The notes under the pieces: generated by a model | Databases searched by the model: none | The model's input: the letters and a program-made list of their open reading frames with translations, nothing else | What the model was told of the DNA's origin: nothing | NCBI GenBank assembly: GCA_964016885.1 | Contig: OZ024748.1 | Span: 16,616,001 to 16,680,000, forward strand | Origin: Eledone cirrhosa | Lineage: Eukaryota | Direction of reading: 5' to 3' | DNA length: 64,000 nt | Position numbers and translations under genes: made by a program | Shown here: positions 2,487 through 58,027 of the stretch, piece by piece | Layout: each line of letters starts with the position of its first letter | Position numbering within the stretch: the stretch's first letter is position 1

Positions 2487-2877
2487 GTATGTATATATAT
2501 ATATGTGTATATATATGTGTGTATATATATATTTATATGTGTATATGTATATATATATGTGTATATATATATATGTATATATATATTTATGTGTGTATAT
2601 ATATATGTGTGTATATATATATATGTATATATATATTTATATGTGTATATACATACATATACATATATATGAAGGAAAGGGAAAAACATAAAACATTCCT
2701 CCCAAAGATTATGTGTGTATATATATATATGTATATATATATGTATATATATATGTGTATATATATATAAGTATATGTATATGTGTATATATATATATGT
2801 ACATATATATGTACATATATATGCATATATATATATGTATATATGAATATATATATGTATGTGTGTGTGTATGTATA

Positions 2878-2911
<34 letters not shown>

Positions 2912-3281
2912 TTTTTTAAAGATGTTACTGAATACTAAGAACTCCAAATCATTCTGAAGACATTCATTAAATATACTTCTCTTCGATTTTATTTTATTTT
3001 ATTTTATTTACTATTCCACCCACTCCTATGGCTTCTACAGATGTCAATAAAATACAATTAACCAACTCTTAACTACTTATTTCATTTCGGAAACCAAAAC
3101 GAAAACCTTTACTTTCTGCTTTCATCTCTCTCTCTCTCTCTAGACCCCTCCCCCCACACACAACAGGCATCCTGCTAGGTCTTAACATGTCCCCACCATG
3201 TCTTTTATCTGACTCTCTATTCTCAATCCCAGTTCTTTTTGTTGATTCATCATTTTCTCTTCAGGTTTTTTTTTTTTTATT

Positions 3282-3320
<39 letters not shown>

Positions 3321-3411
3321 TATATATATATAAAGAGAAAGGGTGTCCCCAAAAATGCATACACACACATGCATATATATATATATAGACATATATATCT
3401 ATATATATATG

Positions 3412-3466
<55 letters not shown>

Positions 3467-3469
3467 GTA

Positions 3470-3500
<31 letters not shown>

Positions 3501-3705
3501 GTATCTCTCTCTCTCTCTATATATATATATATGTATCTCTCTCTCTATATATATATATATGTATCTCTCTCTCTATATATATGTATCTCTCTCTCTATAT
3601 ATATATATGTATCTCTCTCTCTATATATATATATGTATCTCTCTCTCTATATATATATATGTATCTCTCTCTCTCTCTATATATATATATATGTATCTCT
3701 CTCTC

Positions 3706-3759
<54 letters not shown>

Positions 3760-4366
3760 CACACATATATCTATCTATCCACACACACACACACATTTAT
3801 TATCATCATCATCATTTTACGTCCACTTTCCCCTGCTTGTAAGGGTGGGACGGGTCCTATTCAGCACAGCATCACTATCTATCTATACACACACACATAT
3901 ATATATATATTCTATCTCTACATCTCTTTGCACTGACATCCCACCTCCCTCTGCTAGTCCCCATGTAACACCACCTTTTACCATTTTACCCTTTTTATCA
4001 ATATTTCTATCACTTTTTTTTCACTTCTTCCTTTCCCTGCTGAGTAAGAAATTTGTTTTGCCTTTCTTCTCAATATTTCTTTTGTAGTTAGCTTTGATAC
4101 CAAAATCTCTCTCTCATCTATCTGTCTATCCACCAACAGATAGATTCACTTCTCTTCTATCATACAATCTCTTGCTACAGTTAATCAGTTCCAGCTTCCT
4201 CTGATCGTTTATTGGCTATATATATATAGGTGTGTGTGTATGTGTGTATATACACACACATACATATATATATATAAACATATACACATGTGTGTGTTTC
4301 TGCATCTGTCTTGTCATTTCTTGAACTATATCTGTGTATATGTATGTATGCATGTTATATATATAT

Positions 4367-11275: not shown

Positions 11276-11303
11276 AACTACCAACTTAATAACAAGAGAG
11301 TTA

Positions 11304-11508
11304 ACGAAGGAAATGTGGTAAGGAACCAGGTGGACCATAACGCACCAAAGTACTCAATACTTGAGGTAGTAGAGTGGGTAATAGGAACCAGTAAGACCCC
11401 GACAGCTGAGCTCAAGCCGTTTCCACGGCTAATTCTGGACTGAATTAGCCGTCCAGAATTAGCCGTCGAAACGGCTTGAGCTCAGCTGTCGGGGTCTTAC
11501 TGGTTCCT
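11304..11508. mobile_element. Penelope-like pLTR-type fold-back insertion with 15-bp TSD
   Basis: Flanked by ATAACAAGAGAGTTA at 11289-11303 and 11509-11523. About 60-bp inverted arms (11381-11440 / 11451-11510) contain GCCGTCGAAAC. A homologue is at 49721-49858. Confidence 0.75.
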
Positions 11509-29384: not shown

Positions 29385-29751
29385 CAATATTTTAAGAAAT
29401 GAGCGGAAAAAATAAGATCCCGAAAGAAAACAGAGTAAATTTAAAAAATAAATAGAATACTCCACATGAGATTAGAAATTAATTGGAAATAATCTAGTCA
29501 GGAAATTTCTCGGCTAATTTTTCAATAGATTTTGTCACGTTTCATGGAAAAATAAGTTATATATATTTTAGTTTTCCAAGTTCTTTTCAAAAATAAATTC
29601 TCAATGTTATTTTTTTTTGTTTTTTTTTTTGTGCTGAGGAGAGTTGTCTTTCATTGAACCGATTTCCTTATAGACCGTCACACCGTGTAACCTCTTCAGT
29701 GTAATAACTCTCTTAATCCACTGCTATATCATAATTATTGTCATCATCATC

Positions 29752-31905
29752 ACCACCGTTACCACCACCGTTACCACCACCGTTACCACCACCGTTACCA
29801 CCACCGTTACCTCCACCGTTACCACCACCGTTACCACCACCGTTACCTCCACCGTTACCACCACCGTTACCACCACCGTTACCTCCACTGTTACCATCAC
29901 CGTTACCACCACCGTTACCACCACCGTTACCACCACCGTTACCACCACCGTTACCACCACCGTTACCACCACCACCACTGCTATCATCACCGTTACCACC
30001 ACCACCGTTACCACCACCGTTACCTCCACCGTTACCTCCACCGTTACCACCACCGTTACCACCACCGTTACCACCACCGTTACCACCACCGTTACCTCCA
30101 CCGTTACCACCACCGTTACCACCACCGTTACCACCACCGTTACCTCCACCGTTACCTCCACCGTTACCACCACCGTTACCACCACCGTTACCACCACCGT
30201 TACCCCCACCGTTACCCCCACCGTTACCTCCACCGTTACCACCACCGTTATCACCACCACCGTTACCACCACCGTTACCACCACCGTTACCACCACCGTT
30301 ACCTCCACCGTTACCTCCACCGTTACCACCACCGTTATCACCACCGTTACCACCACCGTTACCACCACCGTTATCACCACCGTTACCTCCACCGTTACCA
30401 CCACCGTTACCACCACCGTTACCTCCACCGTTACCACCACCGTTATCACCACCGTTACCACCACCGTTACCACCACCGTTATCACCACCGTTACCCCCAC
30501 CGTTACCTCCACCGTTACCACCACCGTTATCACCACCGTTACCACCACCGTTACCACCACTGTTACCTCCACCGTCACCACCATTGTTACCTCCACCGTT
30601 ACCTCCACCGTCACCACCATTGTTACCTCCACCGTCACCACCACGTTACCACCACCGTCACCACCATTGTTACCTCCGCCGTTACCACCACCGTTACCAC
30701 CACCGTTACCTCCACCGTCACCACCATTGTTACCTCCACCGTTACCTCCACCGTTACCTCCACCGTCACCACCACCGTCACCTCCACCCTCACCACCACC
30801 GTTACCACCACCGTTACCACCACCGTTACCACCACCGTTACCACCACCGTTACCACCACCGTTACCTCCACCGTCACCACCACCTTTACCACCACCGTTA
30901 CCACCACCTTTACCTCCGTTACAACCACCGTTAACACCACCGTCACCTCCACCTTTACCACCACCGTTACCACCACCGTTACCTCCACCGTTACCACCAC
31001 CGTTACCACCACCGTTACCTCCACCGTTACCACCACCGTTACCTCCACCGTTACCTCCACCGTTACCACCACCGTTACCACCATTGTTACCTCCACAGTC
31101 ACCACCACCGTTACCTCCACCGTTACCACCACCGTTACCTCCACCGTTACCTCCACCGTTACCACCACCGTTACCACCATTGTTACCTCCACCGTCACCA
31201 CCACCGTCACCACCACCGTTACCACCACCGTTACCTCCACCGTTACCACCATTGTTACCACCACCGTTACCTCCACCGTTACCACCATTGATACCTCCAC
31301 CGTTACCACCACCGTTACCACCACCGTTACCACCACCGTCACCACCACCGTTACCTCCACCGTTACCTCCACCGTTACCTCCACCGTTACCTCCACCGTC
31401 ACCACCACCGTCACCACCACCGTTACCTCCACCGTCACCACCACCGTTACCACCACCGTTACCTCCACCGTCACCACCACCGTCACCACCACCGTTACCT
31501 CCACCGTTACCACCACCGTTACCACCACCGTTACCTCCACCGTTACCACCACCGTCACCACCACCGTTACCTCCACCGTTACCTCCACCGTTACCACCAC
31601 CGTTACCACCATTGTTACCTCCACCGTCACCACCACCGTCACCACCACCGTTACCACCTGCGTTACCTCCACCGTTACCACCATTGTTACCACCACCGTT
31701 ACCTCCACCGTTACCACCATTGTTACCTCCACCGTTACCACCACCGTTACCTCCACCGTCACCACCACCGTTACCTCCACCGTTACCACCACCGTTACCA
31801 CCACCGTTACCACCACCGTCACCACCACCGTTACCACCACCGTTACCACCACCGTTACCACCACCGTTACCTCCACCGTTACCTCCACCGTTACTACCAC
31901 CGTTA
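29752..31905. repeat. 2.15-kb 12-bp minisatellite (ACCACCACCGTT/ACCTCCACCGTT)n
   Basis: Seen directly. The poly-Pro and poly-VT ORFs are by-products. Confidence 0.97.
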
Positions 31906-32054
31906 TCATCATCGTTTAACGTCTATCTTCCACGCTAGCATGGGTTGGACGGTTTTGTCCTACTTGAGGCAAGATTGGTCAGGAACCCGTTTCTCACTCA
32001 TACAGAATTATCTCTGGCAGGTTTTCTATGGGTGAATGCCCTTTCTAACACTAA

Positions 32055-32810
32055 CCACTTTTACAGTGTGGACTGGGATCCTTTTTACTGTGTCTCCCAC
32101 ACGACCACTTTTACAGTGTGGACTGGGATCCTTTTTACTGTGTCTCCCACACGACCACTTTTACAGTGTGGACTGGGATCCTTTTTACTGTGTCTCCTAC
32201 ATGACCACTTTTTACAGTGTGGACTGGGATCCTTTTTACTGTGTCTCCTACATGACCACTTTTTACAGTGTGGACTGGGATCCTTTTTACTGTGTCTCCT
32301 ACATGACCACTTTTTACAGTGTGGACTGGGATCCTTTTTACTGTGTCTCCTACATGACCACTTTTTACAGTGTGGACTGGGATCCTTTTTACTGTGTCTC
32401 CTACACGACCACTTTACAGTCTGGACTGGGAGCTTTTTTACTGTGTCTCCTACACAACCACTTTACAGTCTGGACTGGGATCCTTTTTACTGTGTCTCCT
32501 ACACGACCACTTTACAGTCTGGACTGGGAGCTTTTTTACTGTGTCTCCTACACAACCACTTTACAGTCTGGACTGGGAGCCTTTTTACTGTGTCTCCTAC
32601 ACGACCACTTTACAGTCTGGACTGGGAGCCTTTTTACTGTGTCTCCTACACGACCACTTTACAGTCTGGACTGGGAGCCTTTTTACCGTGTCTCCTACAC
32701 AACCACCACTTTACAGTCTGGACTGGGAGCCATTTTACCATGTCTCCTACACAACCACTTTACAGTCTGGACTGGGTGTTTTTGTTGTGTCTCCTACACA
32801 ACCACTTTAC
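32055..32810. repeat. ~50-bp minisatellite (~15 copies) derived from the RTE 3'UTR subrepeat
   Basis: Unit CCACTTTTACAGTGTGGACTGGGATCCTTTTTACTGTGTCTCCTACACGA, homologous to about 55720-55820 and 5075-5160. Confidence 0.92.
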
Positions 32811-34859: not shown

Positions 34860-35644
34860 GCAATGTTACCAAGAAACAGTGATATTAAGTGAAAAATTGA
34901 CTCATTTACATACATAATACTTAGGATAGAACCTACATCATTAGTCTTAAATATCTTACACATATTGGATGTGGATGATGATGCTGATGATGATGGTGGT
35001 GGTGAAGGAGATGATGATGGTGGTGGTGGTGGTGGTGGTGAGTGATTATAATGATGAACAAGATGATGGTGATGATGATTAAGAAGGAGATGATGATGAT
35101 GAAGATGCTGAAGAAATTGATAATGGTGATGATGATGATGATGATGATGATCTGGATAATGATGATGATGATCTTGATGATCATCATGATGCTAATGATA
35201 ATCATCAGCATGATGATCAGAATGCTAATGATGATGATCAGGATGCTGATGATGCTAAAACCTCTCTCATTGTATACAAGTTGAAAGATAAGATTGCAGA
35301 TTTAATTGGTTTGTGAAATTTCTGGCCAAATCATTCTGATATATATTGTAACATTTTAATGATTTTATTATGATATCTCCGAGGAATTGCATCAAGCCAT
35401 CGTAATATTTACACTTAGTTAACACATACAACTGTTATTTCGAACATAATTCTCAAACAATTACATCAAACAAGATCATTTAAAATGGCACTGATCAAAG
35501 AAAGAAGGAAGATTGCTGGAATGTTATATATATATAATATATAAAATATATATATAATATAATATATAAAATATATATATGATATATAAAATATATATAT
35601 ATATATAACATATATATATTAATATATAAAATATATGTATAATA

Positions 35645-44825: not shown

Positions 44826-45264
44826 TACAATATTAAATAAATGGAAACTATATTTATAAAACCATATTTATTTCATTATATATATTTCGGGGATATCATA
44901 TTAACAATATGCTATGCCTTCCTCAGACAAAATACAATATAAACAGTTTTATAGATAAATAGATTCGACATACCGTAATAACACCGACTGGCAGTTTAAC
45001 CTCTTCAAATGCAAGTCGGTGTTATTACGGTATGTCGAATCTATTTATCTATAAAACTGTTTATATTGTATTTTGTCTGAGGAAGGCATAGCATATTGTT
45101 AATATGATATCCCCGAAATATATATAATTAAATAAATATGGTTTTATAAATATAGTTTCCATTTATTTAATATTGTAAATATACTCCAAATATTTGTCGA
45201 GTGCTTTTATATCAGTTATAAATATTTACTAGTTGTAACCCAACAATTTTAAATATAACTTTCC
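44826..45264. mobile_element. Penelope-like fold-back element, ~168-bp arms
   Basis: 44826-44993 / 45010-45177 inverted with a 16-nt spacer. Hammerhead in each arm. Tail has GAGTGC (45199). Flanked by (TA)n. Confidence 0.78.
45069..45134 (+). ncRNA. Degenerate hammerhead ribozyme, with a mirror copy on the minus strand in the left palindrome arm
   Basis: UAUUUUGU-CUGAGGA(45077-83)-imperfect long stem II-GAAA(45115-18)-UAUAUA-UA^AUUAAAUA. Same stem I/III design as the 49061 ribozyme. Confidence 0.6.
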
Positions 45265-46807: not shown

Positions 46808-46843
46808 CTTTTGAGAAGCAGAAGAACTGCGAAACCGGTAAAG
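46808..46843 (+). ncRNA. Minimal hammerhead variant with U3:A8 core
   Basis: CUU-UUGAGAA-GCAG-AAGAA-CUGC-GAAA-CCGG-UA^AAG, with palindromic stem III ACCGGU. The island (46808-46980) lies between microsatellites. Confidence 0.6.
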
Positions 46844-47545: not shown

Positions 47546-48687
47546 AGACGAGAAAACAGAACCCAGATCCCCTCAGGGAAATGGCCTTGCTCAGTATGTA
47601 GGAAAGGTGTAGGTAGGAACTCCATTCTCTGCCCCAAATGCAAACAATGAGTACACAAGAGATGTAGCGGGATCTCAGGAAGCTTAATTAAGAATGTAGG
47701 CTTCACATGCAGCAGCTGTGCTGAGACAGCAAGCAGCAAACAGCCACAGGAAACAAGTACCACCAATCTCTGGGAGGGCTCTGTAGAAACAGTAGACAGC
47801 TTCTGCTACCTAGGTGACCAAATTAGCAGCGGTGGTGGGTGTTCAGAAAGTACAATAACTAGGGTAAGAACGGGATGGAAGAAGTTTAGGGAACTACTAC
47901 CACTGCTAGCTGCAAAAGGTTTCTCCCTCAGAATGAAAGGCAGACTGTATGATGCGTGTATCCGAACAGCGATGTTGCATGGTAGTGAGACCTGGGCGCT
48001 GAAGGTGGAAGACTTACGTAGATTAGAGAGAAACGAAGCCTGCATGCTCCGATGGATGTGTAAAAGTAATATACGTGAACGACAAAGCATAAATGAATTC
48101 AGAGAGAGACTGAGCATAAGAGGAATCAAATGCTGTGTGCAGGAGAGGCGGCTGTGCTGGTATGGACATGTGATGCGTATGAAGGATGACAACTGCATAA
48201 AAAGGTGCAGAGCACTAGAAGTTGATGGAAACCGCAGAGTGGGGAGACCCAAGATGACCTGGAATGAGGTGATAAAAGCCGACCTTACCCAATTACACCT
48301 CTCAAAGGCAATGACACACGACCTTGACTTCTGGCGTCACGCAGTAATACAGAGTACCTGACCTCCCATGGGTACAAGCTGAAGCATATAGACAATATGC
48401 CCCACACCCCCCACCGCAAGGTGGTCGTGGAGGTGCCACGGCAAAAAAGCACCCAGCCCACACTGTAAAGTGGACGTGTAGGCGCCACGAAAAAGCACCC
48501 AGCACTCACTGTAAATGAGGTTGGTGTTAGGAAGGGCATCCAGCTGTAGAAATCAAGCCAAATCAGTTCCTGTATGAGCAAGGCATGGTCAGCCGACCAG
48601 ACACTGCCCACAACAGGACAACCCGTCTAACCCATGCTAGCGTGGAAGAATGGACGTAAAACGGTGATGATGATGATGATGATGATG
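47545..48687 (+). pseudogene. RTE LINE 3' fragment (same family as 55578-58027) with an in-frame stop
   Basis: [27 protein letters not shown] followed by [21 protein letters not shown]...GRPK, then the 3'UTR and a (GAT)n tail. Flanked by (TA)n. Confidence 0.9.
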
Positions 48688-48985
48688 TATATATAAATAT
48701 GTATACATACGTATATATAAATATGTATATATAAATATGTATACATACATATATATATATATATATACATACGTATATATAAATACGTATACATACATAC
48801 GTATACATACATACGTATACATACATACGTATATATACATACGTATACATACATACGTATACATACATACGTATACATACATACGTATACATACATACGT
48901 ATATATACATATGTATACATACATACGTATATATACATATGTATACATACATATATATATATACATACATACATACGTATATATC

Positions 48986-49012
<27 letters not shown>

Positions 49013-49016
<4 letters not shown>

Positions 49017-49366
49017 TATTCAAAATATTAACAAATGAAAAATATTCTCACTCAAAATATATACTTTATTATATACATTTCAAACGTACTGTGTTGTTTT
49101 TTCAGTACGTCCTCATCAGACAAAATATATGATTTGATATATGACATAACACTACAGTCTTGATTATTCAATTCCAAACTGAAAAAACAACACATTACCT
49201 TTGAAATATATATAATAAAGTATATATTTTGATTATGAGAATATTTTTCATTTGTTAATATTTTGAATAATATTAAACACTCCAGGAAAATCTTTTTGTT
49301 GAGCGCTTCTAATCTATTGTAAAAGTGTATTCATTGAGTAATCAACGAACCATACTAATCTTTGGT
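49013..49366. mobile_element. Penelope-like fold-back element with intact hammerhead
   Basis: About 93-bp inverted arms (49013-49105 / 49178-49273) and a tail with GAGCGC (49301). Flanked by (TA)n. Confidence 0.78.
49061..49128 (-). ncRNA. Minimal type-I hammerhead ribozyme, apparently intact
   Basis: Minus strand AUAUUUUGU-CUGAUGA-GGACGUACUG[11-nt loop]CAGUACGUUU-GAAA-UGUAUA-UA^AUAAAGUAU. Stem I is 9 bp and stem II is 10 bp (with G-U pairs). Stem III is short and near-palindromic. Predicted cut between 49070 and 49069. Confidence 0.8.
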
Positions 49367-49369
49367 ATA

Positions 49370-49411
<42 letters not shown>

Positions 49412-49534
49412 AATGAAGTAATTCCGTCGGAATTCCAGGAAAAAAGAGTGCTCTATGTAGGTTACAGAGCTTATTAGTTATGTAATAAACAACATAACAT
49501 GGGTTTTCAAATCCACATTCAATAAAAACACCAG

Positions 49535-49604
49535 AATTTTTTCATTCTGACAACTGAAAGCATATTTGTTTGCTTTCAAGAAACCACTGGTAAATGAAAT
49601 AATT
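49535..49604 (+). ncRNA. Degenerate hammerhead ribozyme
   Basis: UUUCAUU-CUGACAA-CUGAAAGCA[loop]UGCUUUCAA-GAAA-CCACUGG-UA^AAUGAAA. All three stems are present, but the core has a C3/A8 mismatch. Confidence 0.6.
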
Positions 49605-49628
49605 ATCTTATGTTGTTTATTACATGAC

Positions 49629-49665
<37 letters not shown>

Positions 49666-50013
49666 ATATATATACATACATACGTATATATACATATGTA
49701 TATATATATATATATATATAGGAACAAGTATGATGCCGATGGCAGAGCTCAAGCCGTTTCGACGGCTATTTCTGGATTATTACCCACTCTACTACCTTAA
49801 GTATTGAGTACTTTGGTGCGTAATGGTCCATCTGGTTCCTTACCACAATTCCTTCGTTATATATATACATATATACTTACTTCTTTAGCAATTAGCACTT
49901 GATAATTTTTTACTTGATGATTTTTACCCGATTATTTTCCTATGATTTAATCTATGTACACTCCATATTCTTCTGAGTTTTCGGCTTGTATTGGCTGATA
50001 GTTCTTCTTATAG

Positions 50014-50067
50014 CTTTAATTGCCCTGATGAGTCCTTAATAGGATGAAACATTGTTGGCTAATAAAG
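50014..50067 (+). ncRNA. Minimal type-I hammerhead ribozyme, apparently intact
   Basis: CUUUAAUUGCC-CUGAUGA(50025-31)-GUCCU-UAAU-AGGAU-GAAA-C-AUU-GUU^GGCUAAUAAAG. Stem I pairs at 9 of 11 positions. Predicted cut after 50056. Confidence 0.8.
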
Positions 50068-50104
50068 ACTTTTGATGTATTGAAGGCTTCTTTGATTTAT
50101 TTTC

Positions 50105-50144
<40 letters not shown>

Positions 50145-50172
50145 CATATGTATGTATATATATATATATATA

Positions 50173-50594
50173 GTTAAAAGAATAGAGGTGTAACACACAA
50201 GTTATTATATATTGGTAAACGGAATAGAAAATGCTGACAAATTGTTCACAGTTGAAAAATGGTTTAATTAGGAATAAAAGAGTATTAGTGATTGTATGGG
50301 TTAGTATTCAGTTGTGGTTTTAAGTTTTTAAGTTTTTACCGGTTGCGCATTTCTAAATGCTTTTCAAAAATAATTTTGAGATAGAGTGTCCGTGCTGTTT
50401 GCTCTGAGCAAACAGCACGGACACTCTATCTCAAAATTATTTTTGAAAAGCATTTAGAAATGCGCAACCGGTAAAAACTTAAAAACTTAAAACCACAACT
50501 GAATACTAACCCATACAATCACTAATACTCTTTTATTCCTAATTAAACCATTTTTCAACTGTGAACAATTTGTCAGCATTTTCTATTCCGTTTA

Positions 50595-50604
<10 letters not shown>
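50173..50604. mobile_element. Fold-back element with perfect 199-bp arms and 1-nt spacer
   Basis: 50206-50404 is the reverse complement of 50406-50604. Each arm has UUGAAAA-GCAUU..AAUGC-GCAA-CCGG-UA, a degenerate hammerhead of the 46808 type. Confidence 0.8.
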
Positions 50605-50638
<34 letters not shown>

Positions 50639-50654
50639 TATACATATACATATG

Positions 50655-50692
<38 letters not shown>

Positions 50693-50698
50693 CATATG

Positions 50699-50746
<48 letters not shown>

Positions 50747-50906
50747 TATATACATACACACACACACATATATATATATGAGGATATATATATATATATA
50801 ATAAAGAGAGGCATTCTTCACATAATTGCAAATGCTTATATGTGTCACTATGTATCTGTGTCAGGATGTGTCTAAATATTTATGAGTATAAGTGTTTGCC
50901 TATCTA

Positions 50907-55580: not shown

Positions 55581-58027
55581 TCATCAACGTTTAACGTCCG
55601 TGTTCCACGCTTGCATGGGTTTGGACGGGGGTAGTCCCACTTGAGGCAAGAGTGATTGTCTTGCTCGCATAGGACTGTCTGGCAGGTTTTCTACAGTTGG
55701 ATGCCCTTCCTAACACCAACCACATTTACAGTGTGGGTCTGGGAGGTTTTTACCGTGTTGCCTACACGGCCACATTATAGCGTGGACTGTGTGTTTTTTT
55801 GTCGTGACACCTACACGATCTCATTTGTTTCGGCCTCGATGGCGCGGCACCAACATAACTTTACATAGAACGGGGTGGTGTGGATGGGGTGGGGGTGGTG
55901 GGACGGGGTGTATTTTGTTAGAGATGCCTACTGGCTGGAGTAGGTTTTACTATATATTTAGGTAAGGCGGGTCTTCTCTGTTACTGAGTACCGCCAAAGG
56001 TCTCGGTCCAGTGACATTGTCTTGGAGAGGTGTAAGTGTGTGATGTCGGAGTTTATCAGCTCGTCCCAGGTTTTTCTAGGTCTGCCTATTCCGTGACTAC
56101 CGTCTATCTTTATTGCCCTGCACTTTGTTATACAGCTATCGACTTTCATGCGCATCACGTGTCCATACCAACGCAGCCTTCTCTCGAGTAAACAACATCT
56201 GATCCCTCTTATCTCTAATTTTTTCCTTAGTTCGTTTATGCTTTGCCGTTCACGTATATTACTGTTACACATCCAGCGGAGCATGCAAGCTTCGTTCCTC
56301 TCTAGTCTGCGTATATCCTCTGCACACAATGCCCAGGTCTCACTGCCATGCAGCATTGCTGTTCGTATGCAGGCATCGTACAACCTGCCTTTCATTTTTA
56401 GTGAGAACCCTTTAGCAGCTAATAGTGGTATAAGCTCTCTGAACTTTTTCCAACCAGTTCTGACTCTAGCTACAGTACTTTCAGAGCACCCTCCCCCACT
56501 GCTGATTTTATCGCCCAGGTAACGGAAGCTGTCCACTATTTCTATAGAACCCTCTGCGCAATTGAAAGAGCTAGTAGTTTGTGGGCACTTGCTGCTACTT
56601 ATTGCACCAGAGCACCGGCCACATGTAAAATCTATGTTCTTAGTTAGTTTACCTGTGATCCCACTACATCTTTTATGCACCCATACTTTGCATTTAGGAC
56701 ATAAAATGGAGTTTCTACCTACGCCTTTCCTACACACCGAGCACGACCATTTCCCAGAAGGGACCGCCGCCTTGTTTTCTTTCCTACAAACTAGTACTTT
56801 GGTCTTAGCCAGGTTAATTTTAAGTCCTTTTGACTCTAGGCCGTGCTTCCATGTTTGGAATTTCTTCTCTAGCTCGGCCATTGATTCCGCTATGAGTGTC
56901 AGGTCGTCTGCGTATAGGAGTTCCCATGGGCAGCCTGTCTTGAACTCCTCTGTTATAGCCTGAAGGGCAATAATAAATAGTAGTGGGCTGAGAACAGAGC
57001 CCTGATGGACGCCAACTTTTACGCTAAACTCTTCACTATATTCGTTGTTAATTCTAACCTTGCTGACTGTTTCTTTATACATGGCTTGTATAGCCCTCAC
57101 AAGCCATTCGTCAACGCCTAGTTTTCTAAGAGCCCACCAGATAATGGAGCGGGGGACTCTGTCGAAGGCTTTCTCCAAGTCGACAAAAGCTAAGTAGAGG
57201 GGTTTACCTTTAGCTAGGTACTTCTCCTGTAGTTGTCGTACTATGAAAAGAGCGTCTGTGGTACTTTTGCCTGACACAAACCCGAACTGCATTTCATCTA
57301 GGTCAATTCTCTCTCTGATTAGTTGCGCTATTACTTTTTCCGTGACCTTCATGACCTGGTCGATTAATTTAATGCCTCTATAGTTACTCCTATCTAGGGC
57401 GTCTCCTTTACCCTTATAACAGTTAACGATGATGCTGCTATGCCAGTCCTTCGGAACAACCCCATTCTGTACGACTTGGTTAACTATGCGGGTGACCATG
57501 GTGTGTCCCACCGTGCCAGATGCCTTCAGCATCTCAGCAACTATTTCCGAAGGCCCAGCCGCCTTACCCGTCTTCATATCCTTGATTGCCTTACTTATTA
57601 TACTCCCCTCGACTAACACTGCTGGTCCCTCTATTGGGTCGATATGGGGGAGACTGCCTTTCTCCCAATTATTCTCCTCATTTAGTAGCCTTTCATAGTG
57701 ACACTTCCAAGCTACCTTCTTATCAGCGTCGGTGATGGCAAGTGTGCCATCGTCGTTTAGTACACACTTCTCCCCGACAATATCACGGTTTTCCTTGACG
57801 CATTGCCTAGCAATCCTGAACACCTCACGTTTTTGGTCATCGCGTTGTAGAACATGCTTGAACTTTCTTTCCTCAGCTTCCCTTCTTGCTAAGTACACTT
57901 GTCTCCTAGCTTCCCTCCTGGCCACTTGATAGTCCTCTCTACTTCCCCCATCCCGCCATACTTTCCAAGCCTGCTTTTTGGCCTTAATTGACCCCTCCAC
58001 CTTACTGTTCCACCACCATGTTACTCT
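55578..58027 (-). mobile_element. RTE LINE copy including 3'UTR and (GAT)n tail, inserted in (TA)n
   Basis: The ORF above is followed by a 3'UTR with two ~50-bp subrepeats, AGGAAGGGCATCCA, and a terminal GGACGTTAAACG(TT)GATGATGA on the minus strand. TA microsatellite lies on both sides. Confidence 0.92.
55958..58027 (-). CDS. RTE-clade non-LTR retrotransposon ORF, 5'-truncated (RT domain, PHD-like C4HC3 finger, C-terminal region)
   Basis: Open frame of about 690 codons with WWWN, K..GKAAG, KGKGD...[54 protein letters not shown] and [16 protein letters not shown]. The 5' end abuts a (TA)n tract and the endonuclease domain is missing. Confidence 0.95.

Follow-up and report, generated by a model that had tools for sequence, protein, structure and literature searches.

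The window examined in this work, a stretch of 64,000 nt from the microsatellite-rich 3.0 Gb genome of Eledone cirrhosa, contains at positions 49017-50597 an array of five islands (I1 to I5) that lie between TA-type tracts. A compound (TA)n/(CATA)/(TACG) microsatellite adjoins the array on both sides; its left part (48688..49016) is likely the original target tract, and its right part occupies 50598..50800. The first-pass annotation of this DNA had described five such islands, each of a different sequence, and a reading of the sequence bears out both their positions and their distinctness, the islands being members of five separate dispersed families.

The first island, I1 (49017..49365, minus strand), is a 5'-truncated end of Penelope-like element (PLE) type, in which an inverted tail (~49270-49365) and an inverted arm (~49178-49273) both lie ahead of the sense 3' end. 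The arm, of ~95 nt, was absent from the earlier account. I1 also carries on the minus strand a minimal type I hammerhead (core CUGAUGA at 49119-49113, GAAA at 49081-49078, predicted cut 49070/49069). I2 (49411..49631, plus strand) is a Hydra-type PLE end consisting of an inverted tail (49411-49473), an inverted arm (49474-49500) and then a sense end with a damaged hammerhead (core CUGACAA at 49547-49553, GAAA at 49580-49583). Its description as a degenerate hammerhead with inverted arms holds, except that the arms are 27 nt long (93% complementary) and not the 24 bp claimed. The spacer that follows (49631..49720) repeats the interruption pattern of the left tract. I3 (49721..49857, minus strand), another Hydra-type PLE end, has an inverted tail (49778-49857) joined to a sense end of 57 nt; this end comprises only the GAAA/stem III/cut half of a hammerhead, in which stem III and the cut triplet are mutated. 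It had rightly been called an inverted half-hammerhead, only the 3' half of the family hammerhead being kept.

I4 (49877..50107, plus strand) is a young and plainly 5'-truncated Hydra-type PLE 3' end, without inverted arm or tail, and it carries a minimal type I hammerhead on the plus strand (core 50025-50031, GAAA 50046-50049, predicted cut 50056/50057). The interruption pattern of the spacer between I4 and I5 (50107..50172) is seen twice more in the right tract. The last island, I5 (50173..50597, plus strand), is formed by two 3' ends, head to head, of a Neptune-like PLE that is very young, and is, as had been noted, a perfect palindrome: its two identical arms of 192 nt (50213-50404 and 50406-50597; 100% complementary) are separated by 1 nt, and a tail (50173-50205) is present on the left arm only. 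Each arm contains a variant hammerhead-derived motif with U3-A8 and GCAA (50443-50473 on the plus strand, 50367-50337 on the minus strand).

The 3' part of a non-LTR retrotransposon, which we take to be RTE-like, occupies 47651-48690 and abuts the TA tract with its (GAT)n end; at locus L157, a near-identical copy likewise has a TA tract behind it, there carrying an I2-family insertion. An ORF of 689 aa (55961-58027, minus strand) has an RVT_1 domain and, past the RT core, an inserted PHD-like finger; its family, compared by eye, matches the retrotransposon fragment to the left of the array. Two more sites in the window, 11303-11507 and 45115-45235, have insertions of I3-family fold-back and I1-related kind. 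Other hammerhead-like motifs are present on the plus strand at 35245, 44450, 46810 and 60060, that at 46810 being of the U3-A8 or CCGG-loop type. A 12-nt tandem array of ~181 copies (29751-31916) and a 49-nt minisatellite of 15 copies (32054-32808) also occur. No host gene is evident among the ORFs of the window, those of low repetitiveness being retroelement fragments or short.

Families and coding partners of the islands

Family sizes were estimated from exact pattern matches, which are lower bounds counted per arm rather than per insertion and for which reversed controls gave 0. By this measure the genome contains at least 529 matches to the I1 family (31-mer), at least 2,498 to I2 (29-mer), at least 53,959 to I3 (24-mer), at least 481 to I4 (31-mer) and at least 4,222 to I5 (25-mer).

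The relatives of I4 are 96-99% identical, and one full-length copy (L032) contains a 911-aa ORF of RT plus GIY-YIG type. Its motifs, read by eye, viz. RWR, DKT, GLYRDD, CxCx5C (CNCRVSANC), YIG, CxxC (CNLC) and CxH (CPH), agree with the published description of the Hydra clade, which is given as lacking CCHH, with RWR as a variant of RWK (PMC8557442); this clade of C-terminal EN+ PLEs is reported to include Hydra-1_Obim (Craig et al., 2021, PMC8557442). Pfam searches gave no match for L032, for L034 or for window 47651-48358. The L032 ORF (3217-5949, minus strand) has, between the RT thumb and the linker, an N/S/R-rich insert of ~140 aa that is absent in the related L034 ORF and resembles the N-rich inserts described for rotifer PLEs (PMC3846280). 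For the I2 family, the pseudo-LTR and tail at L198 lead into a Hydra-like ORF that is broken (tblastn E=9e-77) and has DKT and a CxCx5C linker. For the I3 family, a Hydra-like endonuclease C-terminus, the endonuclease end only, lies ~1.3 kb upstream of the I3 end at L195 (E=2e-28).

Relatives of I5 at L149 and L152 flank ORFs with Pfam matches to RVT_1 and GIY-YIG, and the ORFs of this family (L149, L150 and L152) show DKG and a CX4CxxC linker upstream of a C-terminal GIY-YIG; a search of PDB sequences with the L149 ORF gave 0 matches. This linker is common to Neptune and Nematis, and it is by its motifs that I5 may be called Neptune-like. Judged from these sequences, I2 to I5 are tied to PLE ORFs, of Hydra type for I2-I4 and Neptune-like for I5, the clade labels being drawn from motifs and not from a tree. 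No ORF was found for the I1 family by tblastn on six extended long-copy loci, so that it is the layout of I1 that points to a PLE; the longest common upstream sequence of its long copies, ~740-800 nt, is non-coding, and the family may be non-autonomous. The identity of the islands as PLE ends was absent from the first-pass annotation and is added by the present work. A further locus, L159 (G000:C19:32058300-32065300), contains a parvovirus-like endogenous element (612-2477 and 2536-3988) with ORFs for a phospholipase A2-like capsid domain (PF08398) and Parvo_NS1 (PF01057).

Hammerhead motifs and their predicted activity

Hammerheads were sought with a descriptor comprising the core, stems I and II, the first stem III pair and UH. 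The full descriptor is passed by I1 and I4 and failed by I2, I3 and I5. The type I consensus core (C3-A9, G12-A15.1, U16.1-H17, stems I-III) is likewise present in I1 and I4, which agrees with their earlier annotation as intact hammerheads on the minus and plus strands, and both cut positions predicted at that time fit minimal type I geometry. The consensus is lost in I2 through C3 facing A8, in I3 through lack of the 5' core and in I5 through A13C. The statement that all five islands bear ribozymes is hence true by ancestry (5/5 are hammerhead-derived) and not for consensus cores, which are found in two of the five.

The relatives of the islands place these departures in context. CUGANGA is found in 41 of 51 arms of the I2 family, the copy in the window having CUGACAA. 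The I3 family (L194-L197, L337-L348) has a stem III of 5-6 bp and a stem II loop of ~40 nt, with the 5' half missing in most copies; a U3-A8 core is present in nine of 12 long arms (14 collected, two being fold-backs without the core). In I5 the motif consists of UUGAAAA, a 5-bp stem II, GCAA, CCGG and UA, with GCAA in place of GAAA, and GCAA is found in 17 of 17 distinct contexts of the family; in a sister family, GAAA is found in 10 of 11 cases, with altered pairs in stems I and II (shuffles, 0-1). The I4 motif has C11.1 changed to U at 50045, a change seen in one of 34 family arms. A full hammerhead lies near 21 of 30 I2-family matches and 25 of 30 I4-family matches.

Such motifs exceed chance, since 29 descriptor matches were obtained in 200 kb of arbitrary genome (20 x 10 kb), compared with 0-3 per shuffle in 10 shuffles; extrapolation from these 200 kb gives ~1 hammerhead motif per 7 kb. 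At the gathering score, Rfam gave 0 matches in the window. Below threshold, Hammerhead_1 matched only 50019-50063 (I4; 24.2 bits, E=0.005, cut-off 34), and the I1 hammerhead was without a match. Rfam matches to miRNA families in the window were set aside as hairpin and TA artefacts.

The first-pass annotation had held that a transcript crossing the array in either direction would meet a self-cleavage site. In folds of the whole islands, the hammerhead stems of I1 and I5 have a pairing probability of 0.0, because an inverted arm precedes them, and by this prediction each motif is masked by the inverted arm of its own island. Stems I and II of the I4 hammerhead pair with a probability of 0.26-0.97 depending on context (the range for stem I is the same), its stem III is of 2 bp and the array contains no second I4. 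Hammerheads with a 2-bp stem III are reported to depend on dimers, and no cleavage was seen with single minimal PLE hammerheads in the experiments of the same source (PMC4209133). Single changes at C3-G8 are reported to abolish activity, and an anole PLE hammerhead to have required its protein (PMC11167929). Four of the five self-cutting motifs are thus broken or predicted to be blocked, and I4, a dimer-type motif, is plausibly the sole cut site of the array, so that two-way cleavage appears weakly founded both on the folds and on the behaviour reported for single motifs (PMC4209133).

It could still be proposed that the cluster was retained as a barrier at which transcripts crossing it from either side would cleave themselves, given that consensus cores lie on opposite strands (I1 minus, I4 plus) and that stems I and II of I4 are predicted to fold in some contexts. 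We consider such a role very improbable, because the core of I2 is broken, I3 is a half motif, I5 has A13C, the I1 and I5 stems are predicted to be unpaired, the C11.1U change of I4 is rare in its own family, and the published minimal and anole hammerheads behave as described above (PMC4209133; PMC11167929). The genome-wide density of such motifs and the lack of an evident host gene among the window ORFs also speak against it. The hammerheads are instead likely passengers of pseudo-LTRs, and the array as a unit is likely without function.

Probable origin of the array by repeated insertion

The common plan of I1, I2, I3 (read on the minus strand) and I5 is an inverted tail-bearing piece followed by a 5'-truncated sense end that runs into (TA)n, the switch point between the inverted and sense pieces differing among copies. 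Each of the five families has two alternative end points, the tail being optional. Pseudo-LTRs in partial tandem together with an inverted 5'-truncated copy are found at L032, L149, L152 and L198, and inverted arms are present in I1, I2 and I5. For PLEs, truncated copies in inverted orientation, a tail at one end or the other and a preference for (TA)n have been described, and an octopus Hydra family that prefers (TA)n is listed in the supplement of the same paper (PMC8557442).

Our analyses indicate, with a probability of about 0.9, that the array comprises five short repeats of five dispersed families, at least four of them PLE ends, and that these probably entered a single long, pre-existing TA-rich microsatellite in independent events at separate times. 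Three lines of evidence support such sequential insertion, viz. the lack of a second copy of the array, the unequal divergence of the islands and the continuation of rare interruptions across them. In a search with the whole array (1,581 nt), the best 40 of 8,410 candidates were scored; none of these was a second copy of the array, and all 39 non-self candidates span only I5 and its TA flank. Private positions, at which the copy in the window differs from >90% of fetched relatives, number 7/253 in I1, 2/191 in I2, 4/135 in I3, 2/229 in I4 and 0/192 in I5 (small counts), and between the two arms of I1 there are four substitutions and a 2-nt gap, between those of I5 none. By these differences, I1 and I3 look oldest and I5 looks youngest. 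An interrupted string of 32 nt is common to the left tract and the I2/I3 spacer; its 31-nt core occurs twice in the window and 0 times in ~1.3 Mb of other loci. A string of 62 nt is likewise common to the I4/I5 spacer and the right tract, with a core found three times in the window and 0 times in the same ~1.3 Mb. These microsatellite fingerprints bridge I1 and I2 together, and I5. Long target-site duplications were considered as the origin of the common spacer patterns and rejected (2/86 copies, compared with 0-3 in 20 cross-locus controls); as they are not general, the islands most likely lie inside an older compound tract. These results uphold the earlier proposal of repeated independent insertion into one TA tract.

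An assembly chimera, or a fold-back sequencing artefact in the case of I5, might be suspected from the low complexity of the flanks and the perfect 192-nt palindrome, and four sequencing runs yielded no piece that spans a junction, such as that between I3 and I4, though their short contigs and reduced-representation reads could hardly show one. Such an artefact is nevertheless highly unlikely, as 39 other loci (the best matches of 8,410 candidates) match the full I5 palindrome with its one-sided tail, locus-specific fingerprints continue across the islands, and the ends of each island are biologically typical. That the 1.6 kb is a single composite mobile element or segmental duplication copied as a block would fit the tendency of these families to neighbour each other more than their densities predict, at gaps of <=100 nt in 13 of 63 cases, but this is extremely unlikely in view of the lack of a second copy among the best 40 of 8,410 candidates, the different order and orientation of other clusters, the unequal divergence and the family-typical ends of every island.

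With independent insertion as the preferred reading, the close spacing of the islands would follow from the way these elements insert. The published biochemistry of PLEs, in which AT-rich cleavage has been shown and the tail is explained by two internal RT start sites (PMC11167929), suggests the following steps. The GIY-YIG endonuclease of the element would nick AT-rich DNA; reverse transcription would then start at one of two internal sites, giving an end with or without tail, and would terminate prematurely, and the fold-backs would form when two of these products are joined head to head. Because each insertion would split the tract, targets would stay on both sides and later elements could land beside earlier ones. 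Of 86 complete copies of the I1, I2, I3 and I5 families, 72 are indeed flanked by TA on either side, and it is in this sense only that the earlier statement that each insertion leaves new TA targets is upheld. The pure TA runs flanking copies sum to a median of 51 nt, compared with a length-biased background of 25 nt, which might be read as TA added during insertion, although the I5 set was chosen by a query that contains TA, and the same excess would be expected from target preference. A clear 16-nt target-site duplication with non-repeat letters surrounds an I1-family insertion at L040 (G000:C2:197962339-197965675), the only such case (1/86).

The rarity implied for this array in the first-pass annotation is not supported by a wider survey. 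The arbitrary 200 kb contain 19 insertions of the I1-I3 families and 0 of I4 or I5. Around 169 family-anchored copies, other families within 1.5 kb numbered none in 120 cases, one in 43, two in six and three or more in 0; the 65 neighbours seen exceed the ~38 expected by arithmetic from family densities, so that the clustering is real while the exact five-family mix lies in the tail. A survey blind to family, covering 1.36 Mb of DNA mostly fetched around these same families, gave 547 chains of TA-bounded islands, including 29 of four, 12 of five, five of six and six of seven islands, counts that take in loci overlapping one another and single long elements broken up by microsatellites within them; 23 chains thus have 5-7 islands, and the 12 of five include the array in the window. 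The arbitrary 200 kb alone contain three chains of four. At L249 (G000:C1:56467932-56470962; 258-2604), seven islands occupy 2.35 kb, a larger pile-up than that in the window, in which I3-, I1- and I5-family members, read by eye, follow an order unlike that of the array. The array is therefore a real but ordinary pile-up of retroelement ends of known type. The locus itself, one of many pile-ups of TA-targeting PLEs in the genome, matters little; it provides a compact teaching example of the clustering of microsatellite-targeting retroelements, in which the interrupted microsatellite allows the original target to be followed across insertions.

The 5' ends of the arms are also concentrated at fixed positions, or walls, in three families (paired arms of one insertion being counted separately). 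In the I3 family, 27 of 42 arms met incidentally have their end 10-19 nt upstream of GUCGAAA, and six long arms come from four elements; 20 loci from the head of the match list gave 25 arms, of which by eye 20 end within 19 nt and five are long. Contig word depth at L195 drops ~30-fold across the I3 wall, a drop partly inflated by subfamily divergence. A pile of read ends at L195:320 was discarded as evidence, as it is probably a restriction site. In the I1 family, 14 of 30 arms end 129-147 nt upstream of the pattern (within 19 nt) and two reach further; in I5, 12 of 28 arms end within 10 nt and 16 are longer (2/30 unaligned). No wall was seen by 5'-end mapping in the I2 and I4 families, and a variable duplication is present in the I4 family. 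The motifs at the walls are TCAGTC/TTAGTC in I3, TCACTG in I1 and TCAGAT in I5, which we take to resemble the Initiator consensus.

An Inr-like TCACT has been described in a pLTR (PMC3846280), and transcription of Penelope is reported to start within the pLTR (PMC2377424). We tentatively suggest, as a possibility drawn from these sequences and the less likely side of even, that the fold-back islands are strong-stop-like, RT from two sites in the 5' pseudo-LTR running off the capped 5' end of the mRNA and the two cDNAs being joined head to head within the TA target, in which case the fold-back centres would map the transcription start of each family. No such proposal was found among titles and abstract openings, the coverage of which was incomplete. 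The walls could also come from stalling of RT, from a master copy that is itself short or from a splice acceptor; the last fits the AG at the walls of I3 and I5, but I1 does not fit and no common upstream exon was seen for I3. If the walls are transcription starts, tens of thousands of stubs would inform how PLEs form inverted pseudo-LTRs.

Comparison with known retroelements

The likeness of the islands to the Hydra clade, as described in PMC8557442, extends from protein motifs (DKT, CxCx5C linker, CxxC, CxH, and RWR in place of RWK) to hammerheads, (TA)n insertion, inverted 5'-truncated copies and a tail at either end. The differences are that the island tails are ~60-100 nt compared with the 30-40 bp described, that L032 is longer than the 'generally <3 kb' given there (PMC8557442), and that the I1 family has no known ORF. 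The I5 family is similarly like the Neptune clade in GLKF, DKG, YLDD, the CX4CxxC linker and the C-terminal GIY-YIG, and in its 33-nt tail, inverted ends and TA targets (PMC8557442), and unlike it in a hammerhead with uniform GCAA.

As in the minimal type I hammerheads of metazoan PLE pseudo-LTRs (Cervera and De la Pena, 2014, PMC4209133), I1, I4 and I5 have a stem III of 1-2 bp and a near-palindromic loop. The U3-A8 core of the I3 and I5 families is a published variant, and mostly single motifs in truncated elements, with dual motifs on opposite strands, are shared with the PLEs of that study; the I3 family departs from the minimal type described there in its longer stem III and long stem II loop, most copies being cut inside the loop (PMC4209133). 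The PLEs of Adineta and anole (PMC3846280, PMC11167929) also show head-to-head palindromes at the inverted junction, AT-rich targets and a tail set by two internal RT start sites, whereas the present genome has tens of thousands of very short fold-backs, with 5' ends at fixed positions in three families.

Animal non-LTR retrozymes (bioRxiv 10.64898/2026.07.22.740005) are, like the islands, non-coding, PLE-linked and equipped with a type I hammerhead. They are described as tandem repeats of one unit; in contrast, the array consists of five unrelated single units, with no tandem of one hammerhead-bearing unit in 49017-50597, and at least four of its five islands can be traced to coding elements.
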